A DNA stretch of 64,000 bases. Source: an uncultured Acidobacteriota bacterium. GTDB taxonomy: Bacteria; Acidobacteriota; Thermoanaerobaculia; Multivoradales; UBA5704. Made by a program: the position numbers and the translations under genes. The DNA lies in the NCBI GenBank assembly GCA_963792575.1, contig CAWBWZ010000010.1:285703-349702 (forward strand), read 5' to 3'. Numbering within the stretch: position 1 is the first letter of the stretch; every line of letters starts with the position of its first letter. Shown in pieces: positions 2,330-59,866 of this stretch. The notes under the pieces were generated by a model that did not search any database, had not been told where the DNA came from, and worked only from the letters and a program-made list of their open reading frames with translations.

Positions 2330-3415
2330 TCAACGGCTTCTCCGGAAAATCCGCGGCGCCGGGCCTCGGGGCTCAGGCGCCACCCGCACCGCATCCCCCA
2401 CCGCCGCCGCTCCCGGCGGCGCGAGCACCTCCAGCTCTCCTCCCGCCGCCAGGGCCACCTGGTAATAGGTCACCGGGCCGGCGTAGCGCCGCTCGGTGAC
2501 CCGGCCGGAGAGCGCTCGCGGATCGCTGCCGGCCACGAACGCCAGCGACTCGGGGCGGACGACGAGATCCACCTCCTCGCCGGGGCTTGAATCCTCCGCC
2601 TCGGGGGAGCGGACAGCGGACCAGCGCACCGGGCCGGCCGACCCGCCGCCGAGAGCGGGGTGAGGCACCCAGACGGCGCCGTCCCCTTCGAGCACGCCGG
2701 GGAGCACGCTCGCCCGCCCCACGAAGGTGGCGACGAAACGGGTGTCCGGCCGCTCGTAGAGGTCCTCTGGCGCTCCCACCTGGTGGAGCACCCCGCCGTG
2801 GAGCACCGCGACCCGGTCGCCCAGGTGGAAGGCTTCCTCCTGCTCGTGGGTGACGAGCACGGTGGTGATGCCCACCCGCCGGATCGCCGCCCGGAGCTCG
2901 CGGCGGGTGCGCTCGCGCAGGGTCGGATCGAGGTTCGAGAGCGGCTCGTCGAGCAGCAGCACCCGCGGCTCGGGAGCCAGGGCGCGGGCGAGCGCCACCC
3001 GCTGCTGCTGGCCGCCCGAGATCTCCCCCACCCGCCGGTTCTCGAAGCCGGGGAGGTCGACCAGGGCGAGCGCCTCGGCGATCCGGCGAATCGGCCGTCT
3101 TCTTTTTTGCCGGCGAGGCCGAAGGCGACGTTCTCGCCCACCGTGAGATGGGGAAAGAGAGCGTAGTGCTGGAAGACCATGCCGAAGTGGCGGCGCTCGG
3201 GAGGGAGGGCGGTGACGTCGCTCTCCTCGACCAGGATGCGTCCGCGGTCCGGGGTCTCGAACCCGGCGATCAGCCGCAGGGCGGTGGTCTTGCCGCTGCC
3301 CGAGGGGCCGAGGAGGGCGATGATCTCCCCCTTCTCCACGGCGAGCGACAAGCTCCCTCAGAACCGATTGGGCGCCGAAGCTCTTGTCGAGCCGGTCGAG
3401 GACGAGGAAGGGCAT
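2330..3415 (-). CDS. ABC transporter ATP-binding protein (FbpC/PotA-like), split by apparent frameshifts
   Basis: Walker A GPSGSGKT in one frame (ORF 2470..3351); signature ISGGQQQRV and Walker B LLLDEP in another; C-terminal TOBE-like region. Confidence 0.88.
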
Positions 3416-53993: not shown

Positions 53994-54764
53994 ATGAGCA
54001 CCTTCGACGAATCGAAGCACCCCGAAACCGGCGATCCCTACTTCCTCTCCACCAAGACCATCGCTCCGGAAGATCGGCTGATCTTCGCCCTCGACGTGCC
54101 GACGATCGAGGAGGCCAAGCGTCTGGTCGAGACCCTGTCCGACGCGGTCCAGTTCTACAAGGTCGGGCTCGAGCTGCTGGGCACCGGCGGCTACTTCGAG
54201 CTGATCGAGTGGCTGGTCGAGCGGGAGAAGAAGGTCTTCGCCGACCTCAAGCTGTTCGACGTCCCCGAGACCGTGCGCTCCGCCGTGCGCCGGCTGCGCG
54301 AGTGGCCGATCACGCTCACCACCGTGCACGCCGGCAGCGCCGCCATCCTGGAGGCCGCCTGCCGGGAGAAGGGGAACCTTCAGATCCTCGCCGTCACCGT
54401 GCTGACCAGCCTGAGCCAGGAAGACCTGCGGGATATGGGGATCCAGACCGAGGTCCACGATCTGGTACTCGCACGCGCCCGGCAGGCGGTCGAGCTCGGC
54501 TGCGACGGCGTGGTCGCCTCGGGGCTGGAGGCGCACGCCCTGCGCGCGAGCCTGGGACCGCAGCCGCTGATCGTCACCCCCGGCATCCGCCCCGCCGAGA
54601 ACCGGCCGGCGGACGATCAGAAGCGGGTGGTCACTGTCGAGCAGGCCCTCCGCAACGGCGCCGACTACATCGTCGTCGGCCGCCCGATCCGCAACGCCGC
54701 CGACCCCTACGAGGCGGCGCTGCAGATCCAGGGGACGATCGAGGGGCTGTTCCTCTCCGGCTAG
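53994..54764 (+). CDS. pyrF: Orotidine 5'-phosphate decarboxylase
   Basis: FALD, KVGLEL, DLKLFDVPETV, VTVLTS, TPGIR, DDQKR, VVGRPI. Confidence 0.95.
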   Translation: MSTFDESKHPETGDPYFLSTKTIAPEDRLIFALDVPTIEEAKRLVETLSDAVQFYKVGLELLGTGGYFELIEWLVEREKKVFADLKLFDVPETVRSAVRRLREWPITLTTVHAGSAAILEAACREKGNLQILAVTVLTSLSQEDLRDMGIQTEVHDLVLARARQAVELGCDGVVASGLEAHALRASLGPQPLIVTPGIRPAENRPADDQKRVVTVEQALRNGADYIVVGRPIRNAADPYEAALQIQGTIEGLFLSG

Positions 54765-54779
54765 ACCCGCGATGAAAAG

Positions 54780-54812
54780 AGCCACGGGCCCTCCCGCCAG
54801 AGGGCTTGTGGC
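54780..54812. terminator. Hairpin between convergent genes
   Basis: GCCACGGGCCCTC-ccgcca-GAGGGCTTGTGGC, preceded by an A-run (U-tail on minus strand). Confidence 0.6.
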
Positions 54813-54858
54813 GGATATGGTCATTCAGTTGTCAAAGAGCGCACAACTCCCGGCCTGA

Positions 54859-55260
54859 CTACACGCCGGGCTTCGCGACCGGGCCGGTTCCCGGCGGCCC
54901 ACCTCCCTCCGGCGGCTTCACCACCGGATCCTTCTTGCTGCGGCGCCGGAAGGGGGGGATGCCGAACTCCACCAGCTTGTCGCTGCGGTTCCCGTAGTGC
55001 TCCCGGAGGCCGGTGCGCAGGAAGGTCGTCAGCTTCTTGCCATTCGCCAGCGCCAGCCGGAGACCCTGAGAGGCGATCTGCTTGTTGGCGGCATGGAGGT
55101 CCTGCTGCATGGCGAGAGAGCGCACCTGTTCCAGGAACCCCTGGAGCTTCGCCCGCGGCGCCTCCAGATGGGGAAGCTCGGCGGTGTTGACCGCCAGCGT
55201 GTTGAGAAGGTGCTCCCACTCGGTGACGAAATCGGAATAACGCTTCTGCTGCTTGGCCAT
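54859..55260 (-). CDS. Small all-alpha hypothetical protein with basic C-terminal tail (133 aa)
   Basis: RBS AAGGAGA; amphipathic helices; ...HYGNRSDKLVEFGIPPFRRRSKK. Confidence 0.75.
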   Translation of the reverse strand: MAKQQKRYSDFVTEWEHLLNTLAVNTAELPHLEAPRAKLQGFLEQVRSLAMQQDLHAANKQIASQGLRLALANGKKLTTFLRTGLREHYGNRSDKLVEFGIPPFRRRSKKDPVVKPPEGGGPPGTGPVAKPGV

Positions 55261-55526
55261 GATCTTTCTCCTTGAAAGGCCCAACTTGGTTGACCCGGAT
55301 TCCCGTCCGGGCAGTCCGGCGCGCGGCGCGCCCGGGGAACACCCCCAGGATCAGCGCTCGAGCCGGTAAATGCGATACTGCGTGCAAACATCCTCCTGAT
55401 GGGACTCGTCCCCGGGTCCTGTACACCTTCCTTTCCTGGCGGATTGTTTAGACAGCTAGCTGTTAATTCCGCCTAACTTTTCTGCTGCACCTTGGTTAGT
55501 GTGGCTGTTTACGTCATGATGGTGCT

Positions 55527-55557
55527 ATTATAGGCACCAGCCGGCGCGCCCTGTCAA
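55527..55557 (-). promoter_or_regulatory. Consensus sigma70 promoter, TTGACA-19bp-TATAAT
   Basis: Plus strand ATTATA at 55527-55532 and TGTCAA at 55552-55557. Confidence 0.7.
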
Positions 55558-55915
55558 GTCCTTGTTTACCCGCATAGAAGCTTGCCATGGGAGCGGGTGA
55601 GCTTGAGACGGGTGGAGCCGAACTTGGACGGTCGAGGGGAGATTCGTGACGAGACCACGCGAGCTTGAAGCGGAGCGGCCAGGGTTTGGGCGCCGCGCTC
55701 CAGGCTTGGGCGGCTCCGGCGCAAGTCCGGTCGGCCTCGCGCGAGCTTGGAACCGTTCATCCCAAGCCCGAGCGCGACGCCTCGAAGCCTGGACGCCGTG
55801 AATCGGGCTACGCCGGGGACGGCTGGACTTTGAAGGGAAGCGCGCAAGCCGGCGACGGCTCGCCGCAAGCACGTTCTTTGACAACTGAAGCATCGGGTGC
55901 CAGCCCGCAAACCTG
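55558..55915. repeat. Degenerate periodic array of ~18 RAGCTTG-like boxes at 20-21 bp spacing
   Basis: Box cores at 55561, 581, 602, 623, (643), 664, 685, 705, 726, 746, 767, 788, 808, 829, 849, 870, 891, 912. Confidence 0.7.
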
Positions 55916-55967
55916 CCGGCGGCGAGAGAAGGGGGATCTCCGCCGTGCCGGCTGGCACCCACCCTGT

Positions 55968-56459
55968 TCAGGGTTTCTTCGGCCGCTTCCTGGCTTTCCC
56001 GGGCTTCGCCTCTTCGGCCTCCGGCTCCGCCCGAGCCTGGGCGAGATGGCCCGAGATCTCGCTGAGAACGTTGCCGAGCGTCCGCCGGAGGGCGCGCTCC
56101 AGCTCCTCGTCGGTCACGCTCTGCTTGTGGACGTTGCGGATCACGAACGTCCCGACCGGCGGCTGCCCCCCGACCCGCTGCCAGAGCTCATAGGCGGCCG
56201 GGCTGGCCGGGTCCTTGAGCGTGGGATAGACGAACGCGAGCAGCTCCTCGGGCTCGACCTCCAGCGCCTTGGCGATGTCGATGACGTGCTCCATCTTGAG
56301 CTCGATCGTCCCCGCGAACACGCGGCTCAGGTAGCCATGGCTGTACCGCAGCTTGTTCTCGATGTCACGGACGGTATACCCGAGGATCCTGATCGCGCTC
56401 TTCAGCGCGTCGAGGACGTATCGCACCTCGGAGCGGATGGGGGGCTTGGCGGGGCTCAT
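55968..56459 (-). CDS. XRE-family helix-turn-helix protein
   Basis: LGYTVRDIENKLRYSHGYLSRVFAGTIELKMEHVIDIAKALEV HTH pattern. Confidence 0.8.
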   Translation of the reverse strand: MSPAKPPIRSEVRYVLDALKSAIRILGYTVRDIENKLRYSHGYLSRVFAGTIELKMEHVIDIAKALEVEPEELLAFVYPTLKDPASPAAYELWQRVGGQPPVGTFVIRNVHKQSVTDEELERALRRTLGNVLSEISGHLAQARAEPEAEEAKPGKARKRPKKP

Positions 56460-56563
56460 GGAAGTACTGTATCGCAGCGCTTCGATTCCTTTGACGCTCC
56501 GGGGCGAGCACCCGATCAAGCCGGTGGCGTGAGATGGGTTATCCTGGATGTGGAGGTTTCCAG

Positions 56564-56875
56564 ATGCACTCCATCGTCCAGGACAACATCGAAGCGCTCA
56601 GGGAGCTCGCCATCAAGCACCGGGTCGAGCGGCTGGACCTCTTCGGCTCCGCCGCCCGCGAGGATTTCAATCCGGAGACGAGCGATCTCGATTTCCTGGT
56701 GACCTTCGAGCCGATGCCTCCTATTGAGCACGCCAACAGCTTCTTCGGCCTGCTCGAGGATCTCAAGCGCCTGTTCGCGAGACGCATCGATCTCTTGGAA
56801 TCGGAGCCGATCGAGAACCCCTACATCCGTGAATCCATCGCGCTGTCTCGCAAGGTCCTCTATGAAGCGGCCTGA
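56564..56875 (+). CDS. MNT nucleotidyltransferase antitoxin (MntA-like)
   Basis: LFGSAARED...SDLD (GSx10DxD) motif; overlaps HEPN gene. Confidence 0.88.
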   Translation: MHSIVQDNIEALRELAIKHRVERLDLFGSAAREDFNPETSDLDFLVTFEPMPPIEHANSFFGLLEDLKRLFARRIDLLESEPIENPYIRESIALSRKVLYEAA

Positions 56876-57206
56876 CGCCCGCGCCTTCCTCTTCGACATT
56901 CAGCGAGCCTGTCAGCTCATCACGCAGTTCATCTCCGGAACGACTCTCCCGGACTATGCGGCGGACCCGAAGACGCGGTCCGCGGTGGAGCGACAACTGG
57001 AAATCATTGGCGAAGCTCTCGGCCAGATGCTCAGACTGTTTCCCGAAATGGAACACCAATTCCCCGAAGCACCACGGATCATCTCCTTCCGGAACTACCT
57101 CATCCATGGATACGCCTCGGTTTCGAATCAGGTCGTATGGGGAATCCTGGAAGGCAATCTGCCCGAGTTGTCCGCCAAGGTTGAAGAGCTCCTGAAAGAG
57201 AGCTAA
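56862..57206 (+). CDS. HEPN (DUF86/HepT-like) RNase toxin
   Basis: AVERQLEIIGEA and RNYLIHGY (Rx4H-x-Y) motifs. Confidence 0.88.
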   Translation: MKRPDARAFLFDIQRACQLITQFISGTTLPDYAADPKTRSAVERQLEIIGEALGQMLRLFPEMEHQFPEAPRIISFRNYLIHGYASVSNQVVWGILEGNLPELSAKVEELLKES

Positions 57207-57433
57207 GGGTTTGATCTACAGGTGGCGAGGCTACACTCCTTTGATGCAGAAGATGTAACGGAATGTCCAGACCCTTCTTCAATTTCCGAATTTCAGAGCT
57301 CGAGCCAAAGAACGGCTCTACGTCGTGGGCAATCGCAAACTTCAGCGGGAGGCCATGGGGGCAAGGTGGCCTGACTTCCACTGTAGAATGATGACCGACT
57401 CCATCACGCCAGATCTTCAAAGGAGATCCAGCC

Positions 57434-57814
57434 ATGTATTGCCCTGAATGCAGCGGCGAGTACCGGGAAGGATTCACCCATTGCGCGGACTGCGACGTCG
57501 ATCTCGTGGAGAGCCTTCCGGCGTCTCACGAGGACGCTCCGGCCGGGGATCTCGTCACGGTACTGGAGACGAGCGATCCCGGCGAGCTCGCCTTCGTGGA
57601 ATCGCTGCTGCGGAGTGCGGATATCCCCTTTTCCACGAAGGGGGATCACCTGCAGAGCTTGTTCGCCCTGGGGGCGATCGGCGGTTATAACGCCGTGGCC
57701 GGTCCGGTGAGCATCCAGGTCTCAGAGGAGCACGCGGAGGCTGCGGCTCAGATCCTCGAAGCGGCCATGCCGGACGAGGTGGAGGATCCTGATCTCGCCG
57801 CGACGCCCCAATGA
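57434..57814 (+). CDS. Zinc-ribbon + DUF2007 (putative signal transducing) protein
   Basis: MYCPEC...EYREGFTHCADCDVDLV; SLLRSADIP; RBS AAGGAG. Confidence 0.78.
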   Translation: MYCPECSGEYREGFTHCADCDVDLVESLPASHEDAPAGDLVTVLETSDPGELAFVESLLRSADIPFSTKGDHLQSLFALGAIGGYNAVAGPVSIQVSEEHAEAAAQILEAAMPDEVEDPDLAATPQ

Positions 57815-58554
57815 ATGGCGAGACGATGAACGGCGAGACGAGCGCCGAGCAGGTCTTTCTCACGCCCGGAGAGGAGCCGGCTGCGGCGGTCTCCGCATTG
57901 CCGTCGGAATTGACACCAGAGGCCCGGAAGCTTCGTCTCTACGAGATGGCGCTGGTGATGGGCGTCGCCTTCCTGTCGCCCACGATCCACTCGTTATTGG
58001 ACTGGTGGACCGACGCTCCCCTATTCCCCGAGACCGCTTTCAGCGGTCTGAGCCGCATCATTAGCTCCATCGTCCCGCTCTCGGTGCTCGCGTATGTCCT
58101 CTACCGGCAGGGCCGAAGCCTGCGGACGATCGGGCTTACGGCCAAAGCCTCGGACATTCCCTGGACCCTGGCCGTCATCTTCTGCTCCAAGCTGCTGGCC
58201 AGCAGCATCGAAAACCTCTTCATCGTCTACCACGTTACGGCATTCAAGGCCCACCCCCCGGAATGGGGCGGCTTCCTGACCTGGCTGGCGGTCGTGCCCT
58301 CCGCCGCTCGGGAAGAGCTGATCGTCCGGGCCTATCTGATGACCGAGGTCGCCGCGCTGTCGGGCAGCATGACGCTCGCCGTCATCGCGAGCGCCGGTTT
58401 CCAGTGCTTCTATCACTTGTACCAGGGGGTGCCGGCGGTCCTGCTCCACATGGGGACGTTCTTCACCTACGCGGTCTTCTACGCCTACACGCGGCGGGCG
58501 ACGCCAGTGATCCTCGCCCACGCCCTGGAGAACTTCCTGATCATCGCCAGGTAG
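57811..58554 (+). CDS. CPBP/Abi family intramembrane glutamic endopeptidase
   Basis: EELIVR, HLYQG, AHALEN motifs; multiple TMs. Confidence 0.85.
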   Translation: MNGETMNGETSAEQVFLTPGEEPAAAVSALPSELTPEARKLRLYEMALVMGVAFLSPTIHSLLDWWTDAPLFPETAFSGLSRIISSIVPLSVLAYVLYRQGRSLRTIGLTAKASDIPWTLAVIFCSKLLASSIENLFIVYHVTAFKAHPPEWGGFLTWLAVVPSAAREELIVRAYLMTEVAALSGSMTLAVIASAGFQCFYHLYQGVPAVLLHMGTFFTYAVFYAYTRRATPVILAHALENFLIIAR

Positions 58555-58570
58555 CGGCGCGAGTGGGCCG

Positions 58571-59710
58571 TCAACTCCGGTCCTCTATCGCCTCCAGGAT
58601 CGGACGCGCGAGGTAGATCCGGCGCCAGGAACGGCCGGTCATCTCCGCGAGCAGGCCCTCTCCCTGGAGAAGGGCGATGGCCTGCCGGGCGGTCGGATTG
58701 GAGACGTTCAGGACCTGAGCGGCCCGCGCGGCGGTCAGGTAGGGGTTCACGAAGAGCTCGTCCAGGAGCCGCAGGGCGTTCGGTTTCCGGCTGAGCCGCT
58801 GGCGGTAGGACTCCCGCAGATCCATCAGCCGGCTCGCCTGGCGGATCGCCGACCGCGCCGTCTCCTCCACTCCGGCCAGGAAGAAGCGGAGCCAGCCGGC
58901 CCAGTCCCCCTCCGTCCTCACCCGCTGGAGACGGTCGTAATACTCCTGGCGGTGGGCCTCGATGTAGTCGGAGAGGTAGAGCAGCGGCTGGGAGAGGCGG
59001 CCACGCTCCACGAGGAAGAGCGTGATCAGGAGGCGGCCCACCCGCCCGTTGCCGTCCAGGAAGGGGTGGATCGCCTCGAACTGCTCGTGCATGAGAGCGC
59101 ACTGGACCAGGTCCGGAAACCGCTCGTGGTCATGGAGGAACTCTTCCCAGCTCGCCAGGCAGTCCATCATCGCGTCCGGGGGCGGCGGCACGTAGGGGGC
59201 GGTCGCCGGAGTGCTGCCGGCCGGCCCGATCCAGTTCTGGGAACGGCGGAACTCCCCCGGAGTGGCCTGATCCCCGCGCACCCCCTGCATCAGATGCTCG
59301 TGCAACTCGCGGACGAGACGCAGCGACAGGGGGAGGTCCCGCAGGCGCTCCAGCCCGTGCTCCAGGGCCGCGACGTAGTTCCGCACCTCCCGCACGTCGC
59401 CGTCTCCGGACCGTTCCGGCTCGGCCTCGTCCAGCAGCAGGTCCGAGAGACTGGCCCGGGTCCCCTCGATACGCGAGGAGAGCACCGCCTCACGACGGAC
59501 GTAGGGAGCGATCAGCAAATGGGGATTCGGGAGCTGCCGGCCCAGGCCCGACAGCTCGCTGAGGGCGGCGTCGGCCCGGGAGAGCAGGCGGACCAGAGCG
59601 GAGTCGTACACCAGATCCGGAGGCAGGGGAGCCGGAACAAAGGCCACGTACCCTCCGGGCGCCTGGATCACGCGACCGGCGCTGGGGTCTCGAAAGTCGG
59701 AGGGATTCAT
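58571..59710 (-). CDS. Fic family protein (class II-type inhibitory helix, C-terminal HTH)
   Basis: SSRIEG inhibitory motif; HPFLDGNGRVGR catalytic motif. Confidence 0.92.
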   Translation of the reverse strand: MNPSDFRDPSAGRVIQAPGGYVAFVPAPLPPDLVYDSALVRLLSRADAALSELSGLGRQLPNPHLLIAPYVRREAVLSSRIEGTRASLSDLLLDEAEPERSGDGDVREVRNYVAALEHGLERLRDLPLSLRLVRELHEHLMQGVRGDQATPGEFRRSQNWIGPAGSTPATAPYVPPPPDAMMDCLASWEEFLHDHERFPDLVQCALMHEQFEAIHPFLDGNGRVGRLLITLFLVERGRLSQPLLYLSDYIEAHRQEYYDRLQRVRTEGDWAGWLRFFLAGVEETARSAIRQASRLMDLRESYRQRLSRKPNALRLLDELFVNPYLTAARAAQVLNVSNPTARQAIALLQGEGLLAEMTGRSWRRIYLARPILEAIEDRS

Positions 59711-59725
59711 GGCGGGCTCTGGTGG

Positions 59726-59866
59726 CTTTGAAAGAAATCGGCCTGATTCTTTCAAAGCGCGGCCCACTTTGAAAGGGGGCTTTCAAAGCTCGGGGAGCTT
59801 TTAAAGAAAACGGCCTATTTCTTTCAAAGCTCGGTCTACTTTGAAAGGGAGCTTTCAAAGCCCGGG
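59726..59866. repeat. Two 72-bp tandem units containing eight CTTT(G/C)AAAG palindromic boxes
   Basis: Boxes start at 59726, 59749, 59767, 59780, 59798, 59821, 59839, 59852 (offset 72 between units). Confidence 0.85.

Follow-up and report, generated by a model that had tools for sequence, protein, structure and literature searches.

We analyzed a 64,000-nt stretch of DNA (the window) from an uncultured Acidobacteriota bacterium of the class Thermoanaerobaculia (assembly GCA_963792575.1, contig CAWBWZ010000010.1) and focused on an array of short, regularly spaced sequence boxes near its right end. The array lies between the gene of an orphan protein of 133 amino acids (aa) and a gene encoding an XRE-family helix-turn-helix (HTH) protein, both on the minus strand (Table 1). 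It comprises about 15 phased positions, 13 of which are recognizable as boxes. The array is real, non-coding, and conserved, and is part of an undescribed class.

A phased array inside an inverted-arm unit

Words resembling RAGCYYG started at positions 55578, 55599, 55620, 55640, 55661, 55682, 55702, 55723, 55743, 55764, 55785, 55846, 55867, 55888, and 55909, and two weak phased positions were located near 55805 and 55826. An earlier note on this DNA had counted about 18 boxes; the phased row is real, but it has about 15 positions, the word at 55888 being part of a boxA-like arm and that at 55909 part of a hairpin. A phased-chain search on the core AAGCTT returned 17 boxes separated by steps of 21 (ten cases), 20 (four), 22 (one), and 19 nt (one). 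The chain score was 12.9, compared with a mean of 1.8 and a maximum of 4.7 for dinucleotide shuffles, and was reached by none of the 500 shuffles; this test is biased because the motif was picked post hoc from the same data. A motif-free spectrum showed raised power at 20.6–20.7 nt and at the harmonics 10.35, 6.9, and 5.17 nt. The top peak, 4.39 at 6.9 nt, was matched by none of 300 dinucleotide shuffles, and the 20.6-nt fundamental alone had a power of 2.43, which is about four standard deviations over the shuffle mean yet below the largest shuffle value of 2.48. With four harmonics, the array had a comb score of 14.4–14.8; for 300-nt windows across the genome, the 99th percentile was 6.96. 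Thus, both approaches bore out the recurrence every 20–21 bp, with a mean of about 20.6 bp, described in the earlier note.

The spacers had also been described as unrelated to each other, which is not wholly the case. The array consensus was symmetric to about 9 bp on either side of the dyad, with the central 8 bp best kept. Covariation between the arms of the boxes was detected at one position alone (d=4, pooled z=4.6), and G.T and A.C mismatches were equally frequent (18 vs 20 at d=2; 21 vs 23 at d=3). A symmetric consensus that lacks arm covariation and has equal numbers of G.T and A.C mismatches is the pattern of sites for a symmetric dimer, not of a hairpin. The dyad centers recur every two helical turns, which places every site on the same helical side. 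The array RNA folded no better than shuffles (z −0.79 for the plus strand and −2.54 for the minus strand), and the Rfam 15 covariance models gave no match at E<=10 over positions 54500–57000. A super-period of 62 nt was not present in the window array (power 0.79 at 62 nt). Avoidance of the AAGCTT restriction site was rejected as an explanation, the ratio of 0.76 being ordinary among palindromes, as was a sigma-54 reading of a TGGCAC word by the right hairpin, in which the GG–GC spacing is 2 nt short of the consensus by hand count.

The two inverted arms listed in Table 1 form the strongest inverted repeat of the region (18 nt, 94% complementary). They flank the 133-aa gene, its leader, its promoter, and the array; therefore, all four lie inside one unit of about 1.07 kb, in which the array occupies the stretch from the outer end to the promoter of the sole gene. 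The TTGACA-19-TATAAT promoter claimed to face this gene was confirmed. Our consensus promoter scan allows spacers of 16–18 nt and hence did not list it; the promoter is conserved in the orthologues, where the spacers are about 16–17 nt by hand count. As to the claim that the array ends at the −35 box, 20 bp separate this element from the last clear box of the array, and one degenerate phased box overlaps the −35 element. The plus-strand sequence TGcTATTAT (55523–55531) could be an overlapping, divergent extended −10 element. In the leader, the hairpin at alignment columns 155–173 had one pair kept through two-sided changes in three of ten sequences. The leaders of the window unit and of loci L010–L018 were about 190–260 nt long; of their hairpins, one reads GGGCTCG-N5-CGAGCCC and shows compensatory changes, and the other reads GGGGG-N5-CCCCC. 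In two paralogues, C1 and C23:930k, a tiny upstream open reading frame (MKAQD or MKAPD) stood in place of the leader. The sequence of the right outer hairpin varied among orthologues with its hairpin potential retained, as judged by eye and without a pair count.

Table 1. Features of the array-bearing unit and its borders in the window.
Feature	Positions	Strand	Remarks
GC-rich hairpin, outside left arm	54784..54823		terminator-like minus-strand site, stem 54797-54784, tail GGCTCTTTTC
Left inverted arm	54824..54841	minus	reads CGCTCTTTGACAACTGAA in gene sense; boxA-like; ~20 nt past the stop codon
133-aa orphan protein gene	54859..55260	minus	product predicted to be a helical antiparallel homodimer
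Conserved 5' leader, ~260 nt	55261..55520	minus	Shine-Dalgarno-like GGAAAGGAGGTG word and two conserved hairpins
Sigma-70-type promoter	55527..55557	minus	−35 TTGACA 55552-55557; −10 TATAAT 55527-55532; 19-nt spacer
Array	55578..55873		core AAGCTT flanked by C..G; 20/21-bp steps, mean ~20.6
Right inverted arm	55872..55889	plus	reads CGTTCTTTGACAACTGAA; boxA-like; outward-facing
Hairpin outside right arm	55895..55960		15-nt arms 55895-55909 and 55946-55960
XRE-family HTH gene, HTH_3 domain	55968..56462	minus	outside the unit; first gene of a variable island

Soil metatranscriptome contigs from three studies (X1–X3) covered the 133-aa gene and part of the leader, the X1 contig spanning 55279–55415 onward. 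None lay on 55427–55768 or on the remaining array; since contigs cannot show absence, this carries no weight either way.

The content beyond the array varies among the orthologous loci: the XRE gene and a MNT/HepT–Fic island were found in the window, a permease gene in L013, and an integrase gene in L017. The products encoded in the variable island of the window (56534–59767) are a toxin-antitoxin pair made up of a MNT nucleotidyltransferase and a HepT ribonuclease, a protein of the DUF2007 family, a CPBP/Rce1-like protease, and a Fic/DOC protein that has a Fic_N domain at its N-terminus. In L017 (genome G004), a tyrosine recombinase gene (2664–3368; Phage_int_SAM_4 and Phage_integrase domains) starts about 60 nt outside the distal arm.

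Orthologues, array class, and protein family

Among relatives of the host, which are kin and not independent samples, the pyrF-adjacent orthologues L010, L011, L012, L014, L015, and L017 kept the hairpin, the arm, 16–22 boxes, the promoter, the leader, and the gene; a weaker form was kept in L013, L016, and L018. In six orthologous arrays, the core AAGCTT with its C..G flank (6–8 positions) was best kept, at 0.70–0.89 vs 0.47–0.61 for the 13 other columns, a contrast that is inflated because the box picker favors the core. The spacers differed among species, and the arrays of L010 and L011 were 82 nt (four units) longer than that of the window. At one syntenic site of the window genome (G000) and a close relative (G021) (G000 C6:229257-232616, L004, and G021:C9:54703-58998, L155), G000 has an array and a family gene, and G021 has a different array and no gene, between flanks that are 90–96% identical. 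The gene-less array of G021 belongs to the unit class that adjoins another paralogue (C1 type).

A comb-periodicity scan limited to periods of 19–22.5 nt, with a locus threshold of score >11, revealed 123 array loci in the window genome. According to Tandem Repeats Finder, 66 of the 75 non-redundant tandem repeats with at least four copies and at least 80 bp had a period of 20, 21, 40–42, or 60 nt, a length quantization that constitutes a genome-scale regularity without a described cause. The sequences of the units vary from array to array, and many include palindromes of 12–18 bp; the array class is defined by unit length (20–21 bp or multiples) and not by sequence. The arrays are mostly intergenic and make up 0.76% of the genome. 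They contain 74 of its 744 AAGCTT sites, and the AT-rich core is retained in a genome of 68% GC. Three other genomes of the host genus had 11 (G015), 10, and 8 arrays per 400 kb, and no arrays were found in 760 kb sampled from three other genera. Judging by these sequence comparisons, the class appears to be genus-wide, with about 120 arrays per genome, whole units being gained or lost and arrays being replaced between close relatives. Full-text literature searches, which included tandem repeats in Thermoanaerobaculia, returned no description of such arrays.

Several repeat types were encountered during this survey. A super-period of 62 nt was present in the arrays at C4:151376 and C23:37826. 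Six arrays with CCAAGCG units (G000 C5:27940, C20:606857, C23:174123, C24:18355, C21:287270, and C1:78326) share a left flank of about 90 nt, in which units of opposite sense are followed by a small hairpin; to judge from this flank, they may be copies of a dispersed composite element with an array as its cargo. Beside one array lies a repeat of about 160 nt (L006:755-924, G000 C1), of which G021 and G001 contained dozens of copies with 75–87% identity, often as inverted pairs about 50 bp apart. A grouping of the arrays by shared 8-mers was dropped, as 64 arrays collapsed into one cluster.

The earlier note had tied the array to the 133-aa gene, and this link held: the orthologues keep the adjacency, and 12 of the 17 family members in the window genome lie within 310 bp of an array. 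Arrays above a comb score of 11 were contained in 29 of 37 fetched homologue loci. In unbiased 400-kb samples from three other genomes of the host genus, five of eight family genes were located within about 230 bp of an array, and the enrichment of arrays beside the family was about 20-fold. The family was present in all 24 host-genus genomes (7–41 copies) and in none of the 16 genomes of the other genera of the order; in the sampled genomes, family and arrays share their range, neither being found outside the host genus. The 57 homologues in the databases are all annotated as hypothetical and, where an organism is named, come from Acidobacteriota or Thermoanaerobaculia.

The AlphaFold2 model of the protein (mean predicted local distance difference test, pLDDT, 80.9) comprises helices at residues 2–24, 30–89 (60 residues), and 94–99, followed by a disordered, proline-rich basic tail. 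The best-conserved motif is EHYGNR..KLVEFG..PFR. A sequence-profile search of PDB had a best E of 0.11, the ESM Atlas yielded unnamed Acidobacteriota clusters alone, and tblastn against plasmids and phages gave no match. The homodimer prediction reached an ipSAE of 0.66, while the best of three controls reached 0.01. Among proteins solved as pairs, 20 of 30 attained this mark, as did one of 23 solved as single chains; these counts hold roughly for our case because the alignment was custom-made. The runs agreed in at least 98% of contacts, with a partner pLDDT of at least 87. As residue 56 contacts residue 56, the predicted dimer is antiparallel, so that the conserved C-terminal motifs and the tails would be at opposite ends of the rod. 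At 1.5 Å per helical residue, the modeled rod would be about 80–100 Å long, on the order of two to three DNA turns. The symmetry of the predicted homodimer fits the palindromic boxes.

The ends of the unit point to a wider group of elements. Both arms, when read outward, match the boxA antitermination consensus of rrn operons, GYTCTTTAANA as given in PMC5725501, at 10 of 11 positions. Of the arm's 14-mer, the genome had 11 exact copies vs 0.005 expected and, with at most two mismatches, 32 copies vs 7.7 expected; nearly all 32 had a GC-rich hairpin on the outer (5') side. The copies formed 11 inward-facing inverted pairs, 300–1500 bp apart, whereas no outward or same-strand pairs were found. 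The pairs in G000 include C2:548822/549438, C2:817079/817770, C2:874311/874786, C7:228043/228679, C14:2253/2860, C15:43389/44071, C20:584128/584644, C20:757343/757833, C22:642295/643381, and C22:652484/653551. The units bracketed in this way measure 0.5–1.1 kb, and 3 of the 11 contain a 133-aa family gene. A boxA-like arm was carried 3' of 6 of the 17 family genes, and only 2 of the 123 arrays were near an arm. The arm word sits between spacer tRNAs and the 23S rRNA in four of five loci of other genera, and in the rRNA operon of the window genome it occurs, with one change, in the tRNA–23S spacer. The exact 14-mer was present in 21 of 24 host-genus genomes (1–19 copies) and, mostly in single copy, in 10 of the 16 from other genera. 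By sequence, the inverted arms match boxA and the rrn spacer element of the lineage. The idea that the hairpin-and-arm ends are mere terminators of flanking genes was rejected; in 3 of the 11 pairs, the neighbors point outward on both sides, so the ends are not simply terminators of neighboring genes.

Possible functions of the array

We favor, tentatively and at somewhat less than an even chance, the reading of the array as a phased set of duplex-DNA binding sites for a symmetric dimer, possibly the 133-aa protein with its predicted homodimer. The array would then consist of about 15 tandem copies of an operator of about 18–20 bp, with a symmetric consensus and the core C-AAGCTT-G. A protein of two-fold symmetry may bind each box and cover the DNA cooperatively along one face. 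Foremost among the candidate binders would be the unit's own 133-aa product, a putative antiparallel homodimer that is rod-like and has a basic tail at either end. The nucleoprotein stretch formed in this way might set or buffer the adjoining promoter, e.g., through autoregulation or titration.

A number of observations weigh against this reading. The distance from the array to the −35 box varied from about 20 to about 100 bp in the orthologues. The abutment of array and promoter claimed earlier is therefore no general rule: the gap is about 100 bp in L015, and eight of the 12 paralogue arrays are downstream of the gene and four upstream. Four of the downstream arrays were inspected, and each followed an intrinsic terminator. 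A family gene lies within 310 bp of just 12 of the 123 arrays, and array densities of 10, 8, and 11 per 400 kb do not track family copy numbers of 11, 41, and 19. The gap contexts of the arrays (31/49/11 vs 17.9/55.3/17.8 expected, p=0.0016, in a test that rests on crude GC3-based gene calls) were enriched in convergent and depleted in divergent gaps, which is odd for promoter-control sites. In the close trio of relatives, core variation (9.9%) did not differ significantly from spacer variation (14.3%, p=0.30). The protein itself has no recognizable DNA-binding fold: Pfam, PHROGs, PADLOC, and NCBIfam gave no match to any family, Foldseek returned nothing at E<=0.001 for the model against PDB, and the best hit of the VIA structure search (Z 8.4) was to generic helical hairpins.

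A periodic RNA, already proposed in the earlier note as an alternative, is the strongest competing explanation, possible but doubtful. Plus-strand transcription, divergent from that of the 133-aa gene, would start at TGcTATTAT in the symmetric −10 region and yield an RNA of about 350 nt with AAGCUU every 20–21 nt that ends at the outward boxA-like arm and hairpin; this RNA might act as the scaffold or sponge of a protein that binds RNA, possibly the 133-aa dimer. Gene-less sister units, in which a conserved promoter reads into a 21-nt-phased array, speak for the proposal; the absence of a fold signal and of covariation in the window array speaks against it. Seven aligned gene-less units with the same ends have an invariant TGGACA-N17-TAnnnT promoter-like site that leads into about 350 nt, which favors an RNA in at least that subclass. 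Their GGGAATG/CGTTCCC boxes are spaced 21, 42, 63, or 168 nt apart and are followed by the outward arm and hairpin; the box counts were 11 and 17 vs 0.8–0.9 expected. Most sense arms read GGGAATG, with CGTTCCC as the partner, which would give a U.G wobble on the promoter strand alone. The window unit would share the layout of the gene-less units, provided that its symmetric −10 region is also active in the plus-strand direction.

The gene-less units, at least seven in number and 65–80% identical, are a candidate undescribed periodic small RNA with no match in Rfam. They are located in G000 at C2:548700-549600, C15:43300-44200, C7:227950-228800, C2:817000-817900, C14:2150-2950, C6:61400-62250, and C2:874200-874900 (L161–L165, L168, and L170).

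Further points in favor of an array RNA come from the window-type loci. Both arms point outward and match boxA, which is a signal in RNA. On the strand opposite to the gene, a TG was found one base before a −10-like hexamer in 7 of 10 orthologues by eye (including L012, where the TG abuts the hexamer), and prokaryotic promoters are often bidirectional through sequence symmetry according to PMC12825309 and PMC10268837. In five of seven orthologous arrays the gene-antisense strand was locally more stable by 15–37 kcal/mol, and the bias to convergent gaps suits independent RNA genes. Against these points stands the folding of the plus-strand array RNA, which, as reported above, did not exceed that of shuffles; nor did the window-type array have covariation or a G.U excess, or any Rfam match. 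A palindromic core with a symmetric consensus is unexpected in a single-stranded RNA motif. No −35 box was found for a plus-strand start, and the promoter scan lists none. Over 29 loci, the strand preference of folding relative to the gene was 14 vs 15, and G-richness could explain the five of seven.

It is unlikely, though less so than the two explanations that follow, that the array is a self-propagating structural minisatellite without a dedicated binder, turned over by slippage or unequal exchange. Such DNA would persist through the coherent curvature of a two-turn unit, or be tolerated through the kept helical phase of flanking sites, and its association with the 133-aa family would stem from a common mobility or from common insertion sites. 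The insertions and deletions of whole units (the four-unit excess in L010 and L011) agree with this, as do the different arrays at the syntenic site of G000 and G021, with the gene in G000 only, and the multi-copy array families with conserved flanks, such as the CCAAGCG arrays (6 of 10). The similar divergence of core and spacers in close relatives, the independence of array density from family copy number, and an array context resembling that of extragenic repeats point in the same direction. However, at the pyrF-linked locus the AT-rich core and the spacing were kept across species in which the protein is 62–67% identical, while the spacers were randomized over the same span. Strict length quantization over unrelated unit sequences needs a ruler or selection, and the roughly 20-fold enrichment beside one gene family is unexplained by neutrality alone.

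Binding of the array by the neighboring XRE repressor, the other partner considered in the earlier note, is very improbable. The XRE gene, with its HTH_3 domain, ends 40–95 bp from the array end in the window and in L010, L011, L012, and L018. However, of the 37 loci searched, only 5 (L002, L010, L011, L012, and L018) have a homologue by the array, which amounts to 5 of 10 orthologous loci, and XRE is absent from L013–L017, where the array or a weaker trace of it persists; the gene is located outside the inverted-arm unit, in the variable island. Half-sites of HTH dimers are about 10 bp apart, and the 8-bp palindromic core is short for such a dimer. A decayed coding repeat of 7-aa units, against which the earlier note had also argued, or chance, is barely conceivable: open frames of 130–345 aa cross the array, as is usual in DNA of 68% GC, but the mixed steps of 19–22 nt break every frame so that none survives, the power at period 3.0 was 0.89 (no 3-nt signal), none of the four overlapping frames had a Pfam match at E<=1, and no shuffle reached the chain score.

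Returning to the binding of duplex DNA by a symmetric dimer, a wider version can be outlined, which we consider speculative and improbable as a whole. According to it, the host genus of soil Acidobacteria would possess an undescribed nucleoprotein system in which dimers of the family (7–41 per genome) polymerize on about 120 cognate arrays per genome, with dimer length as the ruler that fixes the 20–21-nt unit. Gene–array pairs would travel in units bounded by outward boxA elements, a gene-less version would encode periodic RNAs, and the system, acting on both DNA and RNA, might constitute a kind of satellite chromatin or insulator.

If the arrays are coated with protein, dozens of sequence-distinct arrays of equal unit length could be matched to paralogues of one small protein, and they would offer a test bed for the evolution of cooperative binding to one face of DNA and for the diversification of specificity. 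If they are structural or selfish DNA, they would be a clean case of helical geometry shaping the evolution of minisatellites. In addition, the boxA-bracketed units and the gene-less, 21-nt-phased units suggest a possible link, open to testing, of non-ribosomal cassettes to the signals of ribosomal antitermination.

Comparison with known systems

The earlier note had stated that the array is not a CRISPR locus, and we agree: the whole period is just 20–21 bp, unlike in an architecture of repeats with unique spacers, and no Cas family was found among the seven neighboring proteins with Pfam. An involvement of Argonaute was rejected, since a Piwi domain was not found.

CsrB/RsmZ sponges and the type III toxin-antitoxin system ToxI-ToxN pair a repeat RNA with a small protein. 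The array resembles them in that about 17–22 short motifs stand beside, or act on, a small protein, a likeness that is closest to the periodic-RNA explanation and the GGGAAUG units. Unlike in CsrB/Rsm RNAs, the boxes lack a constant GGA, and the window array lies upstream of the promoter of the gene; CsrA (PF02599) was not found in the window genome, which is 75.67% complete. The difference from ToxIN consists in the all-helical model of the 133-aa protein and in the absence of a ToxN/AbiQ-like match in Pfam or PADLOC.

The arms share with rrn boxA the consensus (10 of 11 positions) and the word found in tRNA–23S spacers. They differ in forming inward-facing inverted pairs around non-ribosomal units, and in standing at the 3' side of the would-be carrier transcripts and not near the 5' end.

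Repetitive extragenic palindromic (REP) sequences and bacterial interspersed mosaic elements (BIME), which are associated with the REP-associated tyrosine transposases (RAYT), are described in PMC3333891, PMC8266576, and PMC3733652 as short palindromic extragenic units, with a GTAG or CGTC tag at one end of the REP palindrome (PMC3733652). The arrays are similar in consisting of short, palindromic, extragenic units that are clustered, present in high copy, and located after genes, in a genome with 19 Y1_Tnp matches. They differ in that the array is strictly head-to-tail with a fixed 20–21-bp unit and has no GTAG or CGTC tag in the box windows. Ten of the 19 genomic matches to PF01797 (Y1, HUH transposase) were RAYT/IS200-sized, and three stood in tandem at C6:135236-137409. 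A link between arrays and RAYT was judged weak, as 3 of the 19 Y1_Tnp genes were within 700 bp of an array.

The geometry of ARG boxes may be close to that of the array. These are 18-bp palindromes, 2–3 bp apart, that are bound by the hexameric ArgR; about 18 bp plus 2–3 bp gives the period of 20–21 bp, and the C1 array fits this well. In the window array, the consensus is symmetric to about 9 bp, but conservation is good in the central 8 bp only. However, no ArgR-like gene is present at the locus or on contig C10, the five in the genome score below equivalog cut-offs, and the arrays have 15–22 units and not 2–3. Four of these five genes (G000 C1:214622-215152, C4:150032-150550, C23:36589-37137, and C23:930728-931210) are divergent from 133-aa paralogues with arrays or a short array. 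The arrays beside ArgR-like genes have 18-bp palindromic units (C1) or three-unit super-periods of 61–62 nt (C4 and C23:37826), and by eye the intergenic regions between the ArgR-like and 133-aa genes had no obvious repeat of the array unit. A general link to ArgR was rejected: an ArgR-like gene occurred in 3 of the 37 loci, all three in the window genome.

In the type II and Ib centromeres of the parC-ParR kind, tandem 20-bp repeats lie at the promoter of the adaptor gene, and the adaptor coats the array, which in pSK41 has four repeats. The window array is likewise a tandem repeat on the 20-bp scale at the promoter of a small protein. In contrast, the neighborhood contains no ParM/ParA NTPase among its open reading frames or Pfam matches, the 133-aa model consists of helices alone and lacks the N-terminal strand found in ribbon-helix-helix proteins, and the family has 7–41 copies per genome. 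Finally, origin iterons such as those of R6K, P1, F, and pPS10 are direct repeats of about 17–22 bp with a spacing of about two turns, which puts all of them on one face, and a small dedicated protein, encoded next door, binds them cooperatively. The array shares with them a direct-repeat spacing of about two helical turns (period 20.6). It differs from them in that its neighbors include no Rep-type initiator family, and in that the arrays are chromosomal, number about 120, and are built of units that are array-specific and dyad-symmetric.

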